From the IMG/VR virus record IMGVR_UViG_3300029319_008466, positions 18,991-82,990 of that record: a stretch of DNA of 64,000 bases. One strand, written 5' to 3'. The position numbers and the translations under genes are program-made. Below, piece by piece: positions 1,813-59,990 of this stretch. Numbering within the stretch: position 1 is the first letter of the stretch; the number at the start of each line of letters is the position of its first letter. Origin of the DNA: a virus. Below the pieces are notes generated by a model. That model was not told where the DNA came from. It worked only from the letters and a program-made list of their open reading frames with translations, and did no database searches.

Positions 1813-3422
1813 TGGCAAAACAAGATAAGGTTCGTAAAACACCACAAATTAAGCCACCAGTTTTTTCGGCAAATGTGGATTTCAAACCAAAAAAAAATAA
1901 AGGATATCAAAACAGGGTACTTTTATTAAATCCTCCGACCGATAGAACTCAATTTGTGGGATCTGACAATTATTTCCCTCTTGGGCTCATAATGCTTGCA
2001 ACAGTTCTTCGAGGAAATGATGATGTAGCAGAAATTATGGATATTAATAATGATTTCTTTCATCGTGATTTGGATGATGATCTTTTTATACAATATATGA
2101 ATGAGGTTGTACTACCATATGTTGAAGAATTCAAGCCCGATATGGTTGGCATTGGCGGCACTTTTTCTGGAGCATTTAAATATACGAAAATTATTGCAAG
2201 AATGGTGAAAAATAAGTTTCCAACCATCCCCACTATCGTAGGTGGAAATCATGCTAGCACATTTAAGGGAATGGTACTGGAAAGGTTTAGGTATATAGAT
2301 TATGTTATGATTGGGGAGGGAGAATATACTTTTCCTGAATTTTTACACTCAGTTATACACAAAAACAACGAAGGGCTTGAGCTTGTTGATGGCATATGTT
2401 ATAGAAAAGGCGGACACAGAGCGGTGCCCTATGATGTATCACTTCAGGACGACCACACACCGGCAGCCGAAATTATTACACAACAAAAGAAATTTTATAT
2501 TAATAATTTAGATGAATTGCCAAAACCGGATTTTGACATTGTTGGTGTTGATAAATATTATATGGATACATCAGATTGGTATAATCCTCACAATATAGAA
2601 GTTGGACAACCATTTCCCATTATATCCAGTAGAAGTTGTCCCATGAGATGCACATTTTGTAATATGTGGCACGTCCATGGTCCAAAAATAAGATATAGAA
2701 GCGCAGAAGATGTTGTTGACGAAATAGAATATTTATATCACACACACAATGCAAGATATTTCCAATTTATGGATGATAACTTTACATTTGATAAAAAACG
2801 TGTTATTAAAATGATGACCGAGATTAAAAGAAGAGGATTGAAAATCTCATATGATACTCCGAACGGTATTGCAATTAATCGACTGGACGAGGATGTTATT
2901 CGAGCAATGGTAGAAGGTGGTTTGATTAGAATAAGCATTGCAATTGAGAGCGGTTCACAAAAAATAAGAGAGATTATGATGAAAGGCCTCAAACAAGACA
3001 AGATTTATGAAGCGGCGAATGAATTGGCAAAGTATCCACACGTATTTGTAAAAGCATTTTTTATTGTTGGAATGCCCGAGGAAACAGAAGAGACCTTAGA
3101 AGAAACAAGAAGTATGATTAAAACTCTTCCAATAGATAAATTCTCTATCAATTACGCTACGCCATTTCCTGGTACTGCATTGTTTAATCAATGTAAAGCA
3201 AAGGGAATGTTGCGCTATGAAGTAGAAGACTATGTTGAGATTGATGGTCATCAATTAAGATCAGATAGACCTCATTTTAAGCCATACGAATTAACCGAAC
3301 AGCAATTGATGGATTTTATTGAGTGGGGTGATGAGTATATTAAAACACTCCCAGATAAGACCGGAAAATATGACCCACGAGGTGCTGGCGACATTGCCTC
3401 CTATGGTAGTGTATTTAACTGA
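1812..3422 (+). CDS. Cobalamin-binding radical SAM protein (class B methyltransferase-like)
   Basis: N-terminal B12-binding domain (PLGL, VGGNHAS, GEGE); SRSCPMRCTFC (CxxxCxxC); DDNF, IESGS and FIVGMP motifs. Confidence 0.9.
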   Translation: MAKQDKVRKTPQIKPPVFSANVDFKPKKNKGYQNRVLLLNPPTDRTQFVGSDNYFPLGLIMLATVLRGNDDVAEIMDINNDFFHRDLDDDLFIQYMNEVVLPYVEEFKPDMVGIGGTFSGAFKYTKIIARMVKNKFPTIPTIVGGNHASTFKGMVLERFRYIDYVMIGEGEYTFPEFLHSVIHKNNEGLELVDGICYRKGGHRAVPYDVSLQDDHTPAAEIITQQKKFYINNLDELPKPDFDIVGVDKYYMDTSDWYNPHNIEVGQPFPIISSRSCPMRCTFCNMWHVHGPKIRYRSAEDVVDEIEYLYHTHNARYFQFMDDNFTFDKKRVIKMMTEIKRRGLKISYDTPNGIAINRLDEDVIRAMVEGGLIRISIAIESGSQKIREIMMKGLKQDKIYEAANELAKYPHVFVKAFFIVGMPEETEETLEETRSMIKTLPIDKFSINYATPFPGTALFNQCKAKGMLRYEVEDYVEIDGHQLRSDRPHFKPYELTEQQLMDFIEWGDEYIKTLPDKTGKYDPRGAGDIASYGSVFN

Positions 3423-3433
3423 CAGAGGTGTAA

Positions 3434-3790
3434 GTGTCAAGTTTGAAAATGAATTATGTCCCTAAAGGGTGGGGATTTGAGAAGTGGATTGTAAATTGCG
3501 ATGAATATTGTGGAAAATTACTTTATTTTGTTAAAGGCAAACGATGTTCTTGGCACTACCACGAACTAAAAGATGAAGTTTTCTATATTCAGTCTGGGAA
3601 AATGTTGGTAAAATATTCTGATGATGACGATATTGAAAATGCAAAAGAACTAATATTAGAAAAAGGCGATAACTTTCACGTTTATCGAGGGTTGCGCCAT
3701 CAAATGATTGCTCTGCAAGATACAGAATTGTTTGAGTTTTCAACCCAACACTTTGATAGTGATAGCTATAGGATTCAAAAAGGTGATTGA
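3434..3790 (+). CDS. Cupin-fold sugar isomerase-like protein
   Basis: PKGWG-E, SWHYHELKDEVFYI and LRHQM cupin motifs; start may be ATG 3449. Confidence 0.8.
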   Translation: MSSLKMNYVPKGWGFEKWIVNCDEYCGKLLYFVKGKRCSWHYHELKDEVFYIQSGKMLVKYSDDDDIENAKELILEKGDNFHVYRGLRHQMIALQDTELFEFSTQHFDSDSYRIQKGD

Positions 3791-18170: not shown

Positions 18171-21100
18171 ATGTCAATTTGGGGTAACAAACCATCGTCT
18201 GAATCTTTTCCATTTATAGAGATTGATGATTGGCAATATAAAGATGAGTGTCATCCATACACCGATGGAGAAGGTTTTTTATATATTGTTGTGGAAAGTG
18301 AGTATTTGTCACCCGGAAACGATAAAGAAAACCGATTAGCTGAAGCAAGAAGATATGGCGTAGAAAAATTACTTCAATTTTATGGAAAAATGCAAGACGA
18401 GGCGACAGTTGACCAACTTGATTCTGTTGCAGAAACTCCCGATTATCTTGTAAATTATAGACCATGCGGCAACATGATAGTTCTCGTAAGGGTACCAGTT
18501 GAAACTTTTGAAGCTATAGCTGATGATGACACTGAATGTGATGTAGCACAAAGACTGCCAAACCAAGTATCTGCTTTTTTATCCGTTGAAAATTATAGGC
18601 AACAAATTGAATATGTTGTCAACGTAGTTGAATCTTTTATTCCTTTTATTGCGGCATCGGACCAATTTATTACAAATATTAATATAATCAAGGAAATGCG
18701 AAGACTGAGAAGAACCGCTGATGTTATAGAAAGATACTTTAATTTAAACAATATTTCTGCTTCAAACACAACAGAGTGCCCTCCGAACCTTGAAGATGTT
18801 TTAGAAATTGTTTATTCAGTGGAATACGACGTAATGTTTGCACTAATTGAAGGCAAGCAATACACAATTGGATATAACTGTTTTGTTGAAAACCCTTTAT
18901 TAAATCACCTAACAACGGCTCATCTTTTGGCCAACTTAGGAGCAATGGAGGGTGAGCTTATATATGCATATAATGACTCTTTTAACATATTTGATTTTTT
19001 AGAAAAATATCTTTTGCCAACTCCTATAATAATGCCAAAAGAAAAAGCAACAGATGGTCTTGCAAAATATGATGAAAACGGATTACCGCTTTCTCTGGCA
19101 GATATTGCAAAAATAATTACTTTAGATTTAGATGTTAACCTGTGCCCTACTGAAGAAGAGCGACTACAGCGTGAAAGAGTAATCTTGAGTCCCGTAACAA
19201 GAGCAAGCATCGCTCGCGCAGCAACTCAAGCAGAAGAATTTGTTGGAGACAATAAGCTTTCCTCAAAAGGAGTGCAGGATCTTGTCGAACAAATGAGCGC
19301 CATAAAAGGTTCTTTTACTTCAAAACAGGGTGCCGAGGAAGCGCTTGATCAACTTTATAACAACACAATGGCAAAAATAAACATTGGTTGTGTGCTGAAT
19401 GAAACACTTCAGTGTCTTTTGGAAAAATCTATAACGCTCTTGGGTGAAGAACTTTTTGATGACCCGGATCTAGAAAAAATTATTAATATCAGAAAAGGCA
19501 CTTTGGGACAGTTTGTGGATGGTGAGTGCAATCTTAAAAAATGTGATGGAACTCCAATGATAAATGCAGATATTGGGTTTCCTGTATTCCAGGGAATCAC
19601 AATACCTGATAATTTTCCAACGCTTAATTTCCTTGGCTCAACTTTTGAGAATGCTTTAGAGCAGTTGTATCTTGAACTTATCAATGCTTTGTCATCGTTA
19701 GTTTTGGGCGTGTTACAAAATTCTTGCGAATTGTTGTACAAAACTGCAACAGAAGGGATTGATGTTTCCTATGGAATGTTGGAAGATAATCTTCAAGATT
19801 GGATATCTAAATCAATAGGTGTAAACTATGAAGACTTAAACGATCCAGAAGCTTGGAGTGATGCTCTTCAAAAATCAGGCGGTACTGGTTTTTTGGGAAC
19901 TGTGGGAAATTACGTTTCCAGAATGGAGGACTCTTTTGAATCGGTAATTTCAGGTACCGGAATTAGTATGAATTTGCCAATACCCGATCCAAACAATGCA
20001 TGGAATTTTAATACTGAAGAAGTGTTTATTTCTCCGCAAGTGCTATCTCAATTTTTCTCTGATACAAAAGATGCCGCAGAAAATGTTCAATCAATATTAT
20101 CTCCAGCGGAGTCGAGAGATGTATATAAGGGTATTGCGAATGATGAAACTCTCACATTGATGTACAAGTGTGTGAACAAAGCTAATCCTAGTTTTGGTGC
20201 CCTTTTTAAAAACAAACATGAAATGGGTGATTTGTTTTCTGGATTGGGAAAGCTTGTTGATAATGAATTTCTTGATAGCCCGCTTCCCCTTGCCACAACG
20301 GTACCCACGGATCTTTGCAATATTACCAACTCTGATAGTGCCGCCACAATAAGAGAGATACTGCTTAGTGAAAAAGATGATGAATTAACGACAGAAGAGA
20401 TTAATGAAATATTAGATAAAGAAAAAAAACGCACTAAACAGAAATTAATACAAACATTTGAAATTTTGGAATTATATCAAAACGGAAATATTATATCAGG
20501 TTTCCCAAAACTTTACGGCGGAGAAGGCGCTTTAATACCCGAAGCCCCTCCAATTATTAGTAATATAATAAAAAATTCAGTAGATGGGCTATTTGGCAGC
20601 GCAATATCTGATTTTTCAACAAATATTGCCAACTATCAAGATTATTGGTTTGAAGACCCCGAGTTGGGACTTCCAAAAATAAAATTTGTATCAGTCCAAA
20701 CAACCCCCACGACAGTGTATTACAATGAAGATGGAAAGTTATTGGGGTATGATTTCGCGGATGCGTATTTATCTAAAGATGGACCCATATACGAGATCAT
20801 AAAATATGTAAAAGATACTCCGACACAAGAAGGCACCACCGCCTATGTTTATAGCTACCCTGCAAAGTTCAGAGTGAGTCCATTTAGAGCGCTTTATAAA
20901 AACACAATTAATCCATTAACATCTGGGCAAAACTCAGAGCGAATATTGTTAGATGATCAATTGAAAAATATATCATTTTTTAGCAAAGCAGAATTGAATA
21001 AGCGCCCAACGCAAACCAGTGAGTATGAGGAAAACGCAGTTAAATACGATACTACTGATTATGATATTGGAAACAAAACCAATACCTTGGGTCAGACTAG

Positions 21101-53484: not shown

Positions 53485-55074
53485 ATGTCGTTTGAACTCA
53501 CAAAAAATGAAATATTAAAAGAAATATTAAAAAGCGGGAAAGACCCCGTTTATTTCATTAACAACTACGCAAGAATTGCCCACCCTCTCGACGGACTGAT
53601 TCCGTTTAAATTATATCCTTTTCAGGAAAAATTATTATACGACTTCAATGACCACCGTTTTAATGTAATTCTTAAGGCGCGTCAATTGGGAATTTCTACC
53701 ACAACGGCTGCTTATGTCGCGTGGATGATGTTGTTCCATCGTAATAAAAATATTTTGGTTATTGCCACTAAGTTTCAGACGGCAGGAAATCTCGTAAAAA
53801 AAGTTAAACACATTATTAAGAACCTGCCTCCTTGGTTGCAAATAGCCAACATTGATATTGACAACCGTGCATCGTTCGTGTTGTCAAACGGATCTGAGAT
53901 TAAAGCTTCTTCCACATCGGGTGATGCTGGTCGTTCAGAGGCGTTATCTCTTCTCGTAATCGATGAGGCTGCTCACGTCGAAGGTCTCGATGAACTGTGG
54001 ACAGGCTTATATCCTACGCTATCAACAGGTGGTCGCTGTATTGCTCTTTCCACTCCCAACGGTGTTGGTAATTGGTTTCATCAAGTTTATGTGGACGCTG
54101 AACAAGAACAAAATGATTTCTTTCCGACAGTTTTGCCTTGGGATGTTCACCCCGATAGAGACCTTGAGTGGTTTGATAAGGAAACGCGCAACATGTCCCG
54201 GCGTCAAATTGCACAAGAGTTGGAGTGCAATTTCAATATGTCTGGCGAGACGGTTATACACCCCGATGATCTAACTTGGATTGAAAGTACAGTTAAAGAA
54301 CCTCAGTATCGAACTGGGTTTGACAGAAACTTGTGGATTTGGGAAAAATCTATAGATGGCTGCAACTATCTTCTTTCGGCAGATGTGGCCCGAGGTGATG
54401 GAAAAGATAGCTCCACACTGCATGTCTTAAAACTTGAAACAATGGAAATTGTTGCAGAATACCAAGGAAAGCCGACACCAGATGTTTATGCGGATATGTT
54501 AAACAGTATCGGGCGAGAATATAACAACGGAATGATAGTTGTAGAAAATAACTCGGTTGGCTTTGCTGTATTATCAAAATTAAAAGAACTGGGTTATAAT
54601 AACATATATTTCTCTATTAAGTCCACTCATCAATATGTTGAACAAATTCAAGGAGAACATATGTCAAATGCTATCGCTGGTTTTTCTACCACCTCTAAGA
54701 CCCGGCCTCTTATCATAGCAAAAATGGAGGAATTCATTAGAAATAAACTAATTACCATATATTCTTCGCGAACTCTAAATGAGTTCAAGACTTTTATCTG
54801 GAACAACGGTCGTCCCGAGGCAATGAGGAGTTATAATGATGACTTAACAATGGCTCTTGCGATTGGTTGCTGGGTAAGAGACACAGCATTTGAAGCAGGT
54901 AAATTGGAGCAGCAATATAGAGATGCCTTTGTCAACTCAATGTTTGTTGCCTCTACAAAAATGAATACACAAATTAAAGGACAAGAAGGATACAGGGCAA
55001 ACGAAAATACTCTTGAACAAAAGCAGAAAGCAATACAAGATATGAAACAGTTTGGCTGGCTTTATAAAGGATAA
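53485..55074 (+). CDS. terL: Terminase large subunit (T4 gp17-like)
   Basis: LYPFQ Q-motif, KARQLGISTT Walker A, LVIDEAAH Walker B and STPNG; nuclease ADVARGDGKD and DDLTMA. Confidence 0.95.
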   Translation: MSFELTKNEILKEILKSGKDPVYFINNYARIAHPLDGLIPFKLYPFQEKLLYDFNDHRFNVILKARQLGISTTTAAYVAWMMLFHRNKNILVIATKFQTAGNLVKKVKHIIKNLPPWLQIANIDIDNRASFVLSNGSEIKASSTSGDAGRSEALSLLVIDEAAHVEGLDELWTGLYPTLSTGGRCIALSTPNGVGNWFHQVYVDAEQEQNDFFPTVLPWDVHPDRDLEWFDKETRNMSRRQIAQELECNFNMSGETVIHPDDLTWIESTVKEPQYRTGFDRNLWIWEKSIDGCNYLLSADVARGDGKDSSTLHVLKLETMEIVAEYQGKPTPDVYADMLNSIGREYNNGMIVVENNSVGFAVLSKLKELGYNNIYFSIKSTHQYVEQIQGEHMSNAIAGFSTTSKTRPLIIAKMEEFIRNKLITIYSSRTLNEFKTFIWNNGRPEAMRSYNDDLTMALAIGCWVRDTAFEAGKLEQQYRDAFVNSMFVASTKMNTQIKGQEGYRANENTLEQKQKAIQDMKQFGWLYKG

Positions 55075-55078
55075 ATAA

Positions 55079-57007
55079 ATGGCAAACAAGAAAAACCCGA
55101 AAAACCCAGAATCACCTTTGTTTAGGCAATTGACACGCCTATTGTCTGGACCCCTTGTAAATTATCGCACACAAACCAGCCGCAAGCTTTCTCGTGTTCA
55201 GCTTGATAAGTTTAAGTTTCAATCTGCCGCAGGTTTAAATTTTAAAAAATCTTCGTACAATCCTTTCGAACAACTTAGCACCGCAATTATGTCTAATCAA
55301 ATGCGTGCTGAGAGATACCAAGACTTTGAGCAAATGGAGTATACACCTGAGATTGCATCAGCCCTTGATATTTATGCCGACGAAATGACCACTTCGTCAG
55401 ACCTTCAGCCCCTTCTTACCATTAAGTGCCACAACGAAGAGATTAAAGCGGTACTTAATGAACTTTATCATACTGTTCTTAATATTGATTTTAATTTATT
55501 TGGATGGAGTCGCACAATGTGTAAGTATGGCGACTTCTTTTTATATCTTGATATTGATGAGCGCCTTGGAATACAATCTGTCGTTGGCTTACCAACACAC
55601 GAGATCGAGCGCCTTGAAGGTGAAGATAAGAGCAACCCCAAGTATGTCCAATTTCAGTGGAACTCTGGTGGGCTTACTTTTGAAAATTGGCAAGTTGCAC
55701 ACTTTCGTATTCTTGGGAATGATAAGTATGCCCCTTATGGCACTTCTGTATTAGAATCGGCACGCAGAATTTTCCGTCAATTAATTCTTTTAGAAGATGC
55801 AATGATGGCTTATCGGATTGTTCGCTCTCCAGAGCGTCGTGTATTTTATATCGATGTTGGAAACGTTGCTCCTAATGATGTTGAGCAATATATGCAAAAA
55901 GTTATGACACAGATGAAGCGAAACCAAGTTGTTGATGCTAACACTGGTCGTGTTGACTTGCGCTATAATCCAATGAGTACTGAAGAAGATTACTTTATTC
56001 CCGTTCGCGGCGGTGTATCTTCTCGTGTTGAAAGTTTACCAGGCGGGTCTTTTACGGGCGATATCGACGATGTAAAATATCTTCGTGATAAATTATTTTC
56101 TGCATTAAAGGTTCCCCAATCGTATCTTACGAATCTTGAGGGTGCCGATGAAGACAAAACCACATTAGCACAAAAGGACATTCGTTTTGCAAGAACAATT
56201 CAAAGACTCCAGCGCTCGATTATTACGGAGTTAGAAAAGATTGGAATTATTCACCTTTATACTCTTGGGTATAAAGGCGCTGATCTTATTAGTTTTAAAC
56301 TGTCCCTCAATAATCCATCGAAACTTGCAGAACTTCAAGAACTTGAACATTGGAAAACCAAGTTTGATATCGCCGCCTCTGCTACAGAGGGCTATTTCTC
56401 ACGTCGCTGGGTTGCTGATCACATCTTTAACCTTTCTGAAGAAGAGTTCATTCGTAACCAACGAGAGATGTTTTTTGATCGCCGCCTTGATGCAGAACTT
56501 GAAGGCGTTGCCACTGCTGTTGAGGGCGAGGCGGGCGGCCCGCTTGGTGGGGAAACTGAAGACCTCGGCGGTGATGACGTGGACGATCTGCTTGGCGGGG
56601 AGCCAGCCGATGAAGAAGGTGGCGGACCTCTCACAGAGCCAGGTGGCGAAGAGCCAGCAGTCGAACCAGAGGAGGACACTCTTCTCGCAGCACCTGGCAA
56701 AAGAGATGATCAAAGGCGCGTTGGCAAGAGTGGTCCAAATAAACGTCGCATGCGCTCAAAAGCACGCAGTGTTGAGATCAACACTGCACGTACAAACTTC
56801 CCAGGAGGGAAAGGTTTTGAGTCATTGGGGCACCTTGGGGGTCTTTCTGGCGAGTTTAGAAAAGCCGGATTATATGAGGAAGATCACAAGCCTACTGATA
56901 ATTTAGAAGAAAGACAATTATTTGAGGTAAAACAGGAGATAAAGAAACTAATTACGGAGTTAGATAACAGCAAGTTAGGTGACAAAAATGAAAAAAACAA
57001 AACATAA
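55079..57007 (+). CDS. Portal protein (T4 gp20-like) with a long acidic C-terminal tail
   Basis: EIASALDIYADE, LLEDAMMAYRIVRSPERRVFYIDVGN, EDYFIP and DDVKYLRDKLFSALKVP. Confidence 0.92.
   Translation: MANKKNPKNPESPLFRQLTRLLSGPLVNYRTQTSRKLSRVQLDKFKFQSAAGLNFKKSSYNPFEQLSTAIMSNQMRAERYQDFEQMEYTPEIASALDIYADEMTTSSDLQPLLTIKCHNEEIKAVLNELYHTVLNIDFNLFGWSRTMCKYGDFFLYLDIDERLGIQSVVGLPTHEIERLEGEDKSNPKYVQFQWNSGGLTFENWQVAHFRILGNDKYAPYGTSVLESARRIFRQLILLEDAMMAYRIVRSPERRVFYIDVGNVAPNDVEQYMQKVMTQMKRNQVVDANTGRVDLRYNPMSTEEDYFIPVRGGVSSRVESLPGGSFTGDIDDVKYLRDKLFSALKVPQSYLTNLEGADEDKTTLAQKDIRFARTIQRLQRSIITELEKIGIIHLYTLGYKGADLISFKLSLNNPSKLAELQELEHWKTKFDIAASATEGYFSRRWVADHIFNLSEEEFIRNQREMFFDRRLDAELEGVATAVEGEAGGPLGGETEDLGGDDVDDLLGGEPADEEGGGPLTEPGGEEPAVEPEEDTLLAAPGKRDDQRRVGKSGPNKRRMRSKARSVEINTARTNFPGGKGFESLGHLGGLSGEFRKAGLYEEDHKPTDNLEERQLFEVKQEIKKLITELDNSKLGDKNEKNKT
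56948..56954 (+). promoter_or_regulatory. Possible late promoter motif CTAATTA inside the 3' end of the portal gene
   Basis: Same motif, 33 nt upstream of the next gene's ATG (56988). Confidence 0.35.
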
Positions 57008-58361: not shown

Positions 58362-58676
58362 ATGGAGCTTTTATATTTTGTGTTAGCGGCCTATGGGTTG
58401 ACACAAATACTTGTTTACGGAACCATTTTTAATAAAGTTCGCCCAACCAAAGGTTGGTTTGGCGAGCTTTTGTCGTGCCCAATGTGTACAGGCTTTTGGG
58501 TAGGTGCTCTTTTGTTTGGAATAAATGGTTGGACAGAACTATTTACATACGAGTATAATCTCGCCAACCTTTTAATATTGGGTTGGGTGTCATCAGGAAC
58601 ATCATATATCTTAAATGTTATATTTTGTGACAATGGTATACAAATAGGAGCTAACAATGGACAACTGGACAAATAA
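58362..58676 (+). CDS. Small membrane protein with a CxxC motif (DUF1360-like)
   Basis: Three hydrophobic segments; GELLSCPMCTGFWVG. Confidence 0.65.
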   Translation: MELLYFVLAAYGLTQILVYGTIFNKVRPTKGWFGELLSCPMCTGFWVGALLFGINGWTELFTYEYNLANLLILGWVSSGTSYILNVIFCDNGIQIGANNGQLDK

Positions 58677-58719
58677 GTGGATGTTACAACCCGTCAGACG
58701 CTGCTGCAAAGGATCCTAA
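58657..58719 (+). CDS. Unannotated 20-aa peptide MDNWTNKWMLQPVRRCCKGS
   Basis: AGGAG SD (58646-50) 6 nt before ATG 58657; TAA 58717-19; fills the apparent gap before the protease. Confidence 0.55.
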   Translation: MDNWTNKWMLQPVRRCCKGS

Positions 58720-58723
58720 CTCG

Positions 58724-58740
58724 TGCAGGTAGCGCCTGCA
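58724..58740 (+). promoter_or_regulatory. GC-rich RNA hairpin TGCAGG-TAGCG-CCTGCA (SECIS-like)
   Basis: Perfect 6-bp stem in an AT-rich context, with no U-tract. Confidence 0.5.
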
Positions 58741-58753
58741 ACTGGAATAGAAA

Positions 58754-59356
58754 ATGAACAAGTATTTATTAACAGAGTATTATGAACTATGTCCAAATGG
58801 GACATGTGATGATTTATTGACTGAAGATGAAAAACGCATGGTCCGTGAGGAAAATGCAATGTTTTTGACAGGAGTTATGCAGCGTGCCAATCATTTAAAT
58901 GGTAATCGTCGTGTCTATAGTCGTCCAATTTTAGAACGCGAAGTCGAGAATTACAACAAGTTAGTTCGCGAAAGGCGAGCACTTGGTGAATTAGATCACC
59001 CAGACTCAGCAGTTATCAACCTTGCCAATGCAGCACATCTTGTCACAGAAATTTGGTGGGATGGCGATGCTGTTATGGGTAAGGTACAAATTTTGAACAC
59101 ACCATCCGGTCAAATTTTGCGCTCTCTTGTGGAGTCAGGTATCAAGCTCGGCATTTCATCACGAGGCATGGGCTCGGTTCAGGAGCAAAATGGACAAACA
59201 ATTGTTGAAGACGATTTCCAATTGATTTGTTTTGACTTTGTATCCGAGCCTTCTACTACTGGCGCTTTTATGATGCAAGAAAACAAACAACCAAATATCA
59301 TTACAAAAGCGGATCGAATCAATCGAGCATTAAATGATGTACTGAGGAATAAATGA
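58754..59356 (+). CDS. Prohead core protease (T4 gp21-like)
   Basis: NGNRRVY, ALGELDHP, TPSGQIL, GISSRGMGS and DFVSEPST motifs. Confidence 0.93.
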   Translation: MNKYLLTEYYELCPNGTCDDLLTEDEKRMVREENAMFLTGVMQRANHLNGNRRVYSRPILEREVENYNKLVRERRALGELDHPDSAVINLANAAHLVTEIWWDGDAVMGKVQILNTPSGQILRSLVESGIKLGISSRGMGSVQEQNGQTIVEDDFQLICFDFVSEPSTTGAFMMQENKQPNIITKADRINRALNDVLRNK

Positions 59357-59766
59357 AAAAATCAGAATTAAAACAAGTTCTCAGACCTCTTATTAAAGAA
59401 TGTATTAAAGAGGTGATATTTGAAGAAGGTGTTTTATCTAATATTGTTTCCGAGGTGGCACAAGGATTGGGAGGGCAGACTATCGTAGAGACGAAACAAG
59501 CACAGCCCGTTCAAAAAAGAGACTATGCAAAAGAAAATCTAGCCGCCACGCAAAAGCTTCAAGAAACAAGAAAACGAATGTTGGACGCAATTGGGGCAGA
59601 CTCTTATAACGGGGTCGATTTATTTGCTGGTACTACGCCCACAAGAGCCCCTGTTGAGAGCAAACAAGGTGATCCTCTTTCTGGTGTAGATCCTAGAGAT
59701 GCTGGGGTCGATCTCGAAAAACTTTTTGGAGGGGCTAGTAAAAACTGGTCACATATAATTAAATGA
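59353..59766 (+). CDS. Hypothetical head-module protein
   Basis: MKKSELKQVLRPLIKECIKEVIFEEG N-terminus; ATGA coupling on both sides. Confidence 0.65.
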   Translation: MKKSELKQVLRPLIKECIKEVIFEEGVLSNIVSEVAQGLGGQTIVETKQAQPVQKRDYAKENLAATQKLQETRKRMLDAIGADSYNGVDLFAGTTPTRAPVESKQGDPLSGVDPRDAGVDLEKLFGGASKNWSHIIK

Positions 59767-59990
59767 GCAGAGCAGTCAATCTAACCATAAAACCGTTAAA
59801 AAATAGAAAGGGAAGGTCGCCAGATTCTCCCGAAAGTATGATTCGTAGATTTATTAGGAAGTCTAAAAAGGCAGGAATTCTTGATGAAGCCAAGAAAAGA
59901 AAATATTATAAAAAGCCATCTCAAATAAAAAGAGAGAAGGCTATTCGTAGAAAAAGAGAATTAGCAAAATTAGAGAGAAAAAAGAGATAA
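59763..59990 (+). CDS. rpsU: Phage-encoded ribosomal protein bS21
   Basis: 75 aa basic protein; ESMIRRFIRKSKKAGILDEAKKRKYYKKPSQIKR matches the bS21 pattern (LRRFKR..KAG...E.R.R.FYEKP). Confidence 0.88.
   Translation: MSRAVNLTIKPLKNRKGRSPDSPESMIRRFIRKSKKAGILDEAKKRKYYKKPSQIKREKAIRRKRELAKLERKKR

Follow-up and report, generated by a model that had tools for sequence, protein, structure and literature searches.

In phage T4, two small products of the head module, gp67 and gp68, are encoded between the portal gene 20 and the protease gene 21 (PMC9026906) and serve as substrates of that protease. A second body of comparable genes is formed by the small open reading frames (smORFs) of phages and other microbes, which fall below gene-caller length, possess their own ribosome-binding sites, and are strongly conserved while belonging to no Pfam or PHROG family (PMC11364881). 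The subject of this study is a micro-gene that resembles both. It resides in a 64,000-nt stretch of viral DNA, referred to below as the window (positions 18,991 to 82,990 of the 82,990-nt IMG/VR virus record IMGVR_UViG_3300029319_008466, whose completeness is estimated at 28%). There it lies between a gene for a DUF1360 membrane protein and one for a gp21-like prohead protease, and it is followed by a short RNA hairpin. The micro-gene shares all of the smORF attributes just listed, and its location in the head module recalls that of gp67 and gp68. What sets it apart from the described smORFs is its fixed place in this module, an unusually invariant 13-residue core that includes two cysteines, and a covarying hairpin at a fixed distance. 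The T4 proteins are 80 and 141 aa long and show no sequence similarity to the product of the micro-gene, which is a basic peptide of 20 aa that carries a Cys-Cys pair and has no L-x-E site.

The micro-gene and its homologs

The micro-gene (58657..58719; this and the other elements of the immediate locus, from the DUF1360 gene through the protease gene, lie on the + strand) comprises 20 codons and a TAA stop and specifies the peptide MDNWTNKWMLQPVRRCCKGS. It is read in the +1 frame relative to the DUF1360 gene, with whose final 20 nt it overlaps, and an AGGAG Shine-Dalgarno sequence (58646..58650) is located 6 nt 5′ of its ATG. The last 13 codons before the stop form the core, W-M-L-Q-P-V-R-R-C-C-K-G-S (58678..58716), within which the two cysteine codons (58702-58704 and 58705-58707) read TGC TGC, leaving the copy in the window without a UGA, as had been reported. 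A first-pass annotation, made from the sequence alone, had picked out this ORF together with the arrangement in which it is embedded, namely a membrane protein with a CPMC motif upstream and, downstream, a hairpin and a protease that carries CPNGTC. All components of this layout are present, and reading the sequence also bears out the Shine-Dalgarno sequence and the +1-frame overlap. In this one sequence taken by itself, neither the ORF nor the hairpin stands out from chance: 9 kb contain 123 ORFs of ≥20 aa, this one included, and the folding energy of the hairpin is equaled by 23 of 200 shuffles. The folding z-score of the wider region around the hairpin is -0.09. It is comparison with relatives, and not the single sequence, that settles the reality of the micro-gene and the hairpin.

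Homologs were gathered in two ways. With the DUF1360 protein as bait, 80 IMG/VR loci were obtained, most of which contain a short ORF ending in W-x-L-Q-P-V-R-R-C-C-K/R/S-G-S. A degenerate DNA pattern for the core alone yielded at least 120 further viral loci and also matched a dozen phage contigs binned into assorted marine metagenome-assembled genomes (MAGs). Pooled, these loci provide 168 distinct homologous micro-ORF sequences, which are the basis of the homolog counts given below and which share the near-invariant core K-W-x-L-Q-P-V-R-R-C-C-K/S-G-S. Since W, Q, P, V, C, C, and G were required by the search pattern, the invariance of these residues arises partly by construction, whereas synonymous variation does not. 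At the conserved positions, all six codons for Arg, Leu, and Ser and all four codons for Pro, Val, and Gly occur, and the mean entropy at codon positions 1, 2, and 3 is 0.46, 0.40, and 1.41 bits, the variation falling mainly on the third position. An in-frame start exists in 167 of the 168 homologs, 160 of which also display a Shine-Dalgarno-like motif, often AGGAGG. Because synonymous codons vary, the variation has a three-base periodicity, and the ORFs possess their own start and Shine-Dalgarno sequence, the comparison identifies the micro-ORF as a genuine conserved protein-coding gene that annotation has missed. The earlier proposal of an overlooked ORF is thus upheld, with purifying selection acting at the amino-acid level.

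Conservation is confined to the last 13 residues of the peptide. From Met to codon 13 the homologs measure 16-31 aa (median 20), and the N-terminus varies both in length (3-18 residues) and in sequence. A subclade displays a second version of the core, W-M-I/L-Q-P-V-R-R-C-K-N-G-C followed by a stop, which likewise spans 13 codons from W and in which the cysteines are spaced as C-x3-C. Both classes keep exactly two cysteines (CC or C-K-N-G-C). Members of this subclade (L030, L041, L053, L063, and L078, at about 3290-3500) have no hairpin and show a TGA 2 nt before the protease ATG; in these phages, the DUF1360 gene and the micro-ORF are separated by one more ORF, which encodes a basic product of ~50 aa (MNIKISKKRAAKI...).

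The peptide has no relative in Pfam, PHROGs, or PDB, where the matches (E ~0.7) are noise, and only one called homolog was found among 5.8 billion database proteins. In a search for cultured relatives, tblastn against 50,697 phage records returned no match to the peptide or to the DUF1360 protein. One homolog stands in a non-phage context: on a Candidatus Saccharibacteria MAG contig (L213:437-544), a 35-aa ORF, MHTRHWMLQPVRRCCNGQ..., precedes a 12-bp terminator hairpin, and its neighborhood includes an upstream sortase-like gene and, at a distance of 3 kb, smpB. A bacterial origin of the micro-gene was considered on account of this homolog and rejected, as it occurs in one of 86 genomes of that family and in none of the other 85.

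Twenty public runs, all of them marine, contain part of the stretch. Two marine RNA libraries each contain one low-depth contig over the micro-ORF (58489-58713 and 58597-58748) and cover no more of the window than this short part; from these contigs strand and level are not readable, and DNA carry-over is possible. The second contig matches the window without a difference and stops 8 nt past the hairpin, which would fit transcription with a 3′ end there, although as a weak hint only. The best sigma-70-like match of an 11-kb scan, TGGACA-18 nt-TATAAT (11/12), is found at 58530-58559, inside the DUF1360 gene and ~100 nt 5′ of the micro-ORF, where it overlaps the conserved codons Y-E-Y-N.

The intercistronic hairpin and the stop codon

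Downstream of the micro-gene is a hairpin with a 5-bp core, GCAGG-UAGCG-CCUGC (58725..58739), and a loop of the form U-N-N-Y-G. In the window, a sixth U-A pair extends the stem to 58724-58740, and in this longer form the element corresponds to the first-pass description, TGCAGG-TAGCG-CCTGCA, located 4 nt past the TAA and without a T-run. The sixth pair is not conserved, being unpaired in 69 of 94 sequences. When a hairpin is defined by at least four GC pairs and a start within 16 nt after codon 13, one is present in 111 of the 168 homologs. Its start falls 6-9 nt after codon 13 in 101 of the 168, and at 8-9 nt in 86 of the 111. The same scan finds such a hairpin in 1.3% of shuffles and in 0/168 upstream controls.

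Covariation was assessed after aligning, without gaps, 94 distinct sequences that bear a hairpin. Their 5-bp core contains a single unpaired cell in 470; the sequences were picked for having a hairpin, which biases this paired percentage but not the diversity of stems seen at a single fixed position. Compensatory double changes occur at four of the five core pairs (GC/AU/GU, GC/AU/CG, GC/UA/CG), as illustrated by column pairs 48-62 (GC 69, AU 16, GU 9), 50-60 (GC 72, AU 16, CG 6), and 52-58 (GC 87, UA 3, CG 2). The covariation score of 0.261, compared to 0.105 for shuffles, is exceeded in 0/500 shuffles, and quite dissimilar stems occupy the same position in different phages (GUGGGGG...CCCCCAC, GCCGG...CCGGC, and GCGGU...ACCGC, for example). 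Covariation and fixed spacing, both named as checks in the first-pass annotation, are thus present. The hairpin stays with the micro-gene when other genes are inserted and occurs only once in the window, which rules out a repeated intergenic element. Judged from these comparisons, the hairpin is a real but optional structured intercistronic RNA element.

Two further assignments of the structure were considered and set aside. An intrinsic terminator would account for the stem, but the tail in the window reads AACTGGAAT, and only 16-20 of the 111 hairpin-bearing homologs have a T-rich tail, with no T-run following the hairpin in 82% of them; a terminator scan of the region does not list the hairpin. 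The minimum free energy fold of the window pairs the cysteine codons with the 5′ arm of the hairpin, and RNAalifold does not recover this alternative pairing from the 94 sequences.

The junction between the micro-gene and its successor is also constrained. In the window, the stop and the two nucleotides after it form a TAA-C-U segment (58717..58721) that is conserved among homologs in the following sense. Codon 14 is a stop in 122 of the 168 (TAG 56, TAA 35, TGA 31) and a sense codon in the other 46. A C stands directly after the stop in 102 of the 122 (84%) and a CU in 95 (78%), whichever stop is used and with or without a hairpin; by comparison, the stops of long ORFs in the window are followed by C in only 5 of 55 cases (9%). 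A stop followed by C is the weakest termination context in E. coli. In homologs with a sense codon at this place, the reading frame continues across the hairpin, giving x-x-R/Q-V-A-P-A, and then ends variably, with nothing else conserved.

Across the family, two junction designs can be distinguished: either the hairpin is placed at its fixed distance, as in the window, or the ATG of the next gene stands directly after the micro-gene. Fifty-seven of the 168 homologs keep Cys-Cys without a hairpin, and where these bear a stop the next ATG is usually 2 nt on, as in TAG-CT-ATG. In this tight class (no hairpin, ATG 2-5 nt past the stop), codon 11 is Lys and includes AAGG or AGGA in 43/43 cases, which indicates that it doubles as the Shine-Dalgarno sequence of the next gene. 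The hairpin class, which has a separate Shine-Dalgarno sequence behind the hairpin, tolerates K, S, R, or N at codon 11. In the window, this separate sequence is a weak GGA (58745..58747), 6 nt before the protease ATG, and relatives display AAGGA or TGGA in its place. The next ATG is found 14-16 nt after the hairpin in 52 of the 111 hairpin-bearing homologs.

A short GC stem-loop just 3′ of cysteine codons resembles the selenocysteine insertion sequence (SECIS) of E. coli fdhF, the upper stem of which is superficially like the UGCAGG...CCUGCA of the micro-gene. The first-pass annotation had gone further, assigning the locus to a family of phage micro-selenoproteins (RRC-U-xGS in relatives), here with Cys in place of selenocysteine and with the SECIS retained, and had placed a G-T at +25/+26 from the second Cys codon; the count is correct, and the proposed family is not supported. 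It had suggested looking for an in-frame TGA at either cysteine. Pattern scans of IMG/VR returned at least 120 TGY-TGY loci, no TGA-TGY locus, and two TGY-TGA loci, one of which is an unrelated high-GC capsid gene. A scan of JGI metagenomes added one more contig with the same TGY-TGA sequence, and so a single real TGY-TGA case, a duplicate, and no TGA-TGY case stand against at least 120 TGY-TGY loci in the two collections combined. At the Cys codons, TGA is absent from every hairpin-linked copy among the homologs scanned. A fused form of the peptide and the membrane protein, also suggested as a check, was not found; the search for a "longer" protein is weak evidence on this point, and distant clades keep the micro-gene separate, with an AGGAGG of its own.

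The duplicate reads WMLQPVRRC-TGA-KGS-TAG and is known from two contigs (L012:3297-3359, the same contig as L083 and L205, and L204:1830-1900). It is the upstream unit of an 85-nt tandem duplication and is followed by an intact Cys-Cys copy and the family hairpin. A weak hairpin, GCUGGC-UGGAU-GUCGGC, starts 11 nt after its TGA, and the E. coli SECIS stem-loop lies ~11 nt from the recoded codon. Moreover, across ~170 nt the two contigs differ only at two sites in the 3′ arm of this weak hairpin, both of which preserve pairing. However, the hairpin is not significant (z -1.3, with 26 of 200 shuffles folding equally well), the TGA copy lacks the family hairpin and sits beside an intact Cys-Cys copy, and the coding part of the two contigs shows no divergence and hence no selection signal either way. 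The TGA copy is probably a decaying duplicate, with a few per cent left for a true recoded paralogue. For the family hairpin itself, the SECIS idea fails because the structure is optional (missing from the 57 Cys-Cys homologs mentioned above), is sometimes translated (in 39 homologs), begins 17 nt, and not ~11, past the second Cys codon, and has no match in an Rfam search at the locus. Unlike the fdhF element, it accompanies no UGA at a Cys position, its stem sequence varies freely, and it is present after stop and sense codons alike; the subclade that has C-K-N-G-C in place of C-C is also hairpin-free. No tRNA genes, for selenocysteine or otherwise, were found in the window, the record representing only about 28% of the genome. 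A retained SECIS is, in our estimation, very improbable.

A weak-context stop with a hairpin 5 nt on could alternatively represent a recoding signal, such that the stop after Gly-Ser is read through, or bypassed in the manner of T4 gene 60, thereby extending the peptide or joining it to the protease. The in-frame R/Q-V-A-P-A reading of the hairpin and the replacement of the stop by a sense codon in 27% of homologs would fit this scheme, and the core of the micro-gene resembles the gene 60 nascent signal K-Y-K-L-Q-N-N-V-R-R-S. Contact residues of that signal are Tyr16, Arg24, and Ser28 (PMC5462505). The gene 60 signal acts 18-32 residues from the peptidyl transferase center, however, compared to 1-13 for the core of the micro-gene, and no matched take-off and landing codons are present. 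The frame of the micro-gene relative to the protease is 0, 1, or 2 depending on the locus, which excludes fusion, frameshifting, readthrough, or bypass into the protease. In addition, 50 stop-bearing homologs without a hairpin leave only ~2 nt before the next ATG, and nothing is conserved past the hairpin, where the extensions end variably. Finally, the compensatory changes in the stem mix synonymous with non-synonymous substitutions, indicating that the RNA structure, and not an R-V-A-P-A peptide, is what is constrained. Recoding is thus given only a very slight chance.

Cysteine pairs in the flanking proteins

Both genes that flank the micro-gene encode conserved cysteine pairs. The upstream gene (58362..58676) specifies a 104-aa protein that matches DUF1360 (PF07098, 6.7e-07; 29.7 bits against a gathering cut-off of 21) over profile positions 48-73 of 102, the part around CPMC. 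Three hydrophobic helices are predicted, and CPMC, which comes after a basic loop, probably faces the cytoplasm according to the positive-inside rule. Among 60 distinct DUF1360 homologs the motif is CPMC in 56 and CSMC in 4.

The downstream gene (58754..59356) encodes a 200-aa prohead core serine protease of the Peptidase S77 family, which resembles T4 gp21 (PF03420, 8.8e-33; phrog_207, 5.3e-55). H82, S135/S136, and C159 are invariant in 30 diverse protease homologs, with H82 and S135/S136 being the likely catalytic residues by analogy with gp21. The Pfam match begins at residue 33, and upstream of it is a clade-specific N-terminal extension (residues 1-24; 58754..58825) with the consensus L-L-x-E-Y-Y-E-L-C-x4-C-x-D-L-L-T-E-x-E-K. 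In the window, this extension holds the pair C13-P-N-G-T-C18 (C-x4-C) between one LLTE at 5-8 and another at 21-24, and E8, C13, C18, L22, T23, E24, E26, and K27 are invariant in the same 30 homologs. An AlphaFold2 model of the protease has a mean predicted local distance difference test score of 75.6, with residues 1-20 modeled at low confidence (~50). T4 gp21 itself carries a cleavage site near its own N-terminus, and propeptides are suspected targeting signals in this system (PMC9026906). The L-x-E motifs that flank the cysteine pair fit the gp21 cleavage logo, L/I-X-E (PMC9026906), and the extension may for this reason be a removable propeptide. One homolog of the protease (L005:3392-3889) has a deletion of ~35 aa in which the second cysteine and an LLTE site are lost, with the micro-ORF and hairpin intact.

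The closest cultured phages, Flavobacterium phage immuto and Microcystis phage Mel-JY01, do not possess the extension; their proteases are ~50% identical to that of the window, with matches that start at residue 36-38. Neither a DUF1360 gene, nor a micro-ORF, nor a cysteine pair in the protease is found in 80 loci of the immuto clade, and all three features are likewise absent from Mel-JY01, although gene order, including S21, is otherwise kept. The Mel-JY01 protease (L305:2408-3070), which has no N-terminal cysteine pair, ends in a Cys-rich C-terminal tail, ...KIICEIGTYCEC, that may be another solution to the same need.

Within the clade, the three elements are closely associated. Among 132 loci for which the peptide pattern was the only search criterion, ~113 have the DUF1360 gene directly upstream of the micro-ORF, the protease is adjacent to the micro-gene in 77 and within 1.2 kb in 33 more, and the trio as a whole is kept in ~110. 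In some loci, inserted genes separate the micro-gene from its neighbor on one side or the other. The DUF1360 protein and the protease fall to about 45-55% identity while the peptide core stays near invariant. The cysteine pairs of the membrane protein, the peptide, and the protease N-terminus, which had been grouped as one module at first pass, are thus all conserved and travel together. Their joint absence from the two outgroups is consistent with a single joint gain and counts as one contrast. Going by its homologs, the micro-gene marks a large clade of abundant but uncultured marine T4-like phages, in which it resides within the head-morphogenesis block.

The annotation of the window places a T4-type head block around the micro-gene. 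Upstream are the large terminase (53485-55074) and a gp20-type portal (55079-57007), with two family-less proteins between the portal and the DUF1360 gene. Downstream, a 137-aa protein separates the S77 protease from a homolog of the ribosomal protein bS21 (59763-59990; PF01165, 5.4e-09), which is located two genes 3′ of the protease. Mel-JY01 has a matching placement of bS21 (L305:3562-3789), annotated there as RpsU.

Possible roles of the peptide

We consider it possible, with a probability of roughly 0.4, that the basic two-Cys peptide acts in trans as a partner of the Cys-pair elements of the membrane protein and the protease, perhaps through a shared metal. The peptide would then be the third member of a set that also includes the cytoplasm-facing CPMC and the acidic C-x4-C extension, and pairs of these elements might share a metal ion, probably Zn, or bind to one another in some other way. 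Complementary charges could contribute to such an association, with K, R, R, and K in the peptide facing E8, D20, E24, and E26 in the extension. T4 proheads begin on the inner membrane and detach after proteolysis (PMC9026906). Conceivably, the partnership holds the protease zymogen at a membrane-bound site of prohead initiation until self-cleavage frees it. The hairpin, for its part, might allow the micro-gene and the next gene to be expressed separately, be it as a 3′-end stabilizer, a weak attenuator, or a translational insulator.

A more specific version of this partnership, which seems rather unlikely, is a metal-bridged intermolecular Cys4 clasp in which the peptide, the CPMC loop, and the propeptide together tether the zymogen at the membrane-bound initiation complex of the prohead, with self-cleavage as the releasing step; at the same strength, the peptide could instead serve as a nascent-chain sensor that gates synthesis of the protease. 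The CD4/CD8-Lck zinc clasp, in which two Cys pairs jointly form an intermolecular Zn site, likewise employs short Cys-pair motifs on separate chains, one of which is membrane-anchored, and the likeness is pure analogy, with no homology.

Several observations weigh against partnership in trans. A vicinal Cys-Cys would be an unusual pair of metal ligands. A peptide that needs a free C-terminus should not accept extensions, and yet 46 of the 168 homologs continue past the core by 2-37 codons that are not conserved. The co-distribution of the three Cys-pair features may reflect one ancestral gain, that is, a single phylogenetic contrast, and the expression data consist of low-depth contigs from RNA libraries that may stem from DNA carry-over. 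Moreover, the restriction of conservation to the C-terminus, the fixed spacing from W to the end, and the conserved stop-C-U are features of the kind expected from a cis-acting leader peptide.

The last of these points leads to the main rival, a regulatory leader peptide similar to TnaC or SecM, which we regard as somewhat less probable than partnership in trans. According to this model, the C-terminal 13 residues would act within the exit tunnel to slow termination at the weak stop-C-U. The paused ribosome, standing against the hairpin or on the next start, would then set the output of the downstream gene, usually the protease. TnaC offers the closest precedent: its reading frame has 24 codons compared to 20 for the micro-ORF, like the micro-ORF, it has an invariant Trp preceded by Lys and located 12 residues before the end, and its stop is closely followed by a regulatory RNA element and the next gene (PMC8429421). 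The Trp12-Pro24 distance in TnaC equals the spacing seen here, and TnaC stalls with a stop codon in the A site (PMC8429421). In the micro-gene family, conservation is limited to the last 13 residues and the N-terminus is variable, and W is positioned exactly 12 residues from the C-terminal one in the CC class as well as in the C-x3-C class; W is invariant in 168/168 homologs, but the search pattern required it. A leader would also fit the C found after the stop in 102 of 122 homologs regardless of stop codon, the hairpin 5 nt after the stop, which corresponds to the leading edge of a terminating ribosome, and the tight stop-CT-ATG coupling to the next gene in many homologs. The run-on ORFs (27%) would be harmless to it if the pause occurs at codons 13-14.

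These features are offset by others. The gene that follows is not the protease in ~30% of loci, and a leader assigns no role to the two invariant cysteines or to their co-distribution with the two other Cys-pair elements. No known arrest motif, such as a C-terminal Pro, is present in the peptide, and its last four residues differ by class (CKGS compared to KNGC). Conservation of codons 11-12 is partly due to their use as a Shine-Dalgarno sequence, and the match to the TnaC spacing may be coincidence. Unlike TnaC, the peptide has no equivalents of Asp16, Ile19, and Pro24, and its core ends in G-S or G-C with no acidic residue. It further differs from TnaC in its two invariant cysteines, its variable next gene, and the sense codon that takes the place of the stop in 27% of homologs.

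As for what these results mean, the analysis closes off the selenocysteine reading for this locus. The core of the peptide is more conserved than the neighboring enzymes, and yet it is missing from annotation, Pfam, and PHROGs and, but for one called homolog, from a database of 5.8 billion proteins. The targeting and activation of gp21-type proteases are an open question (PMC9026906). The micro-gene points to an extra layer of head assembly that is not found in T4, consisting of a membrane protein, a micro-protein, and a protease propeptide, and a small, synthesizable peptide with two invariant cysteines would provide an easy experimental handle on the control of gp21-type proteases. If the Cys4 clasp is real, it would constitute a previously unknown control step in the maturation of T4-type heads.

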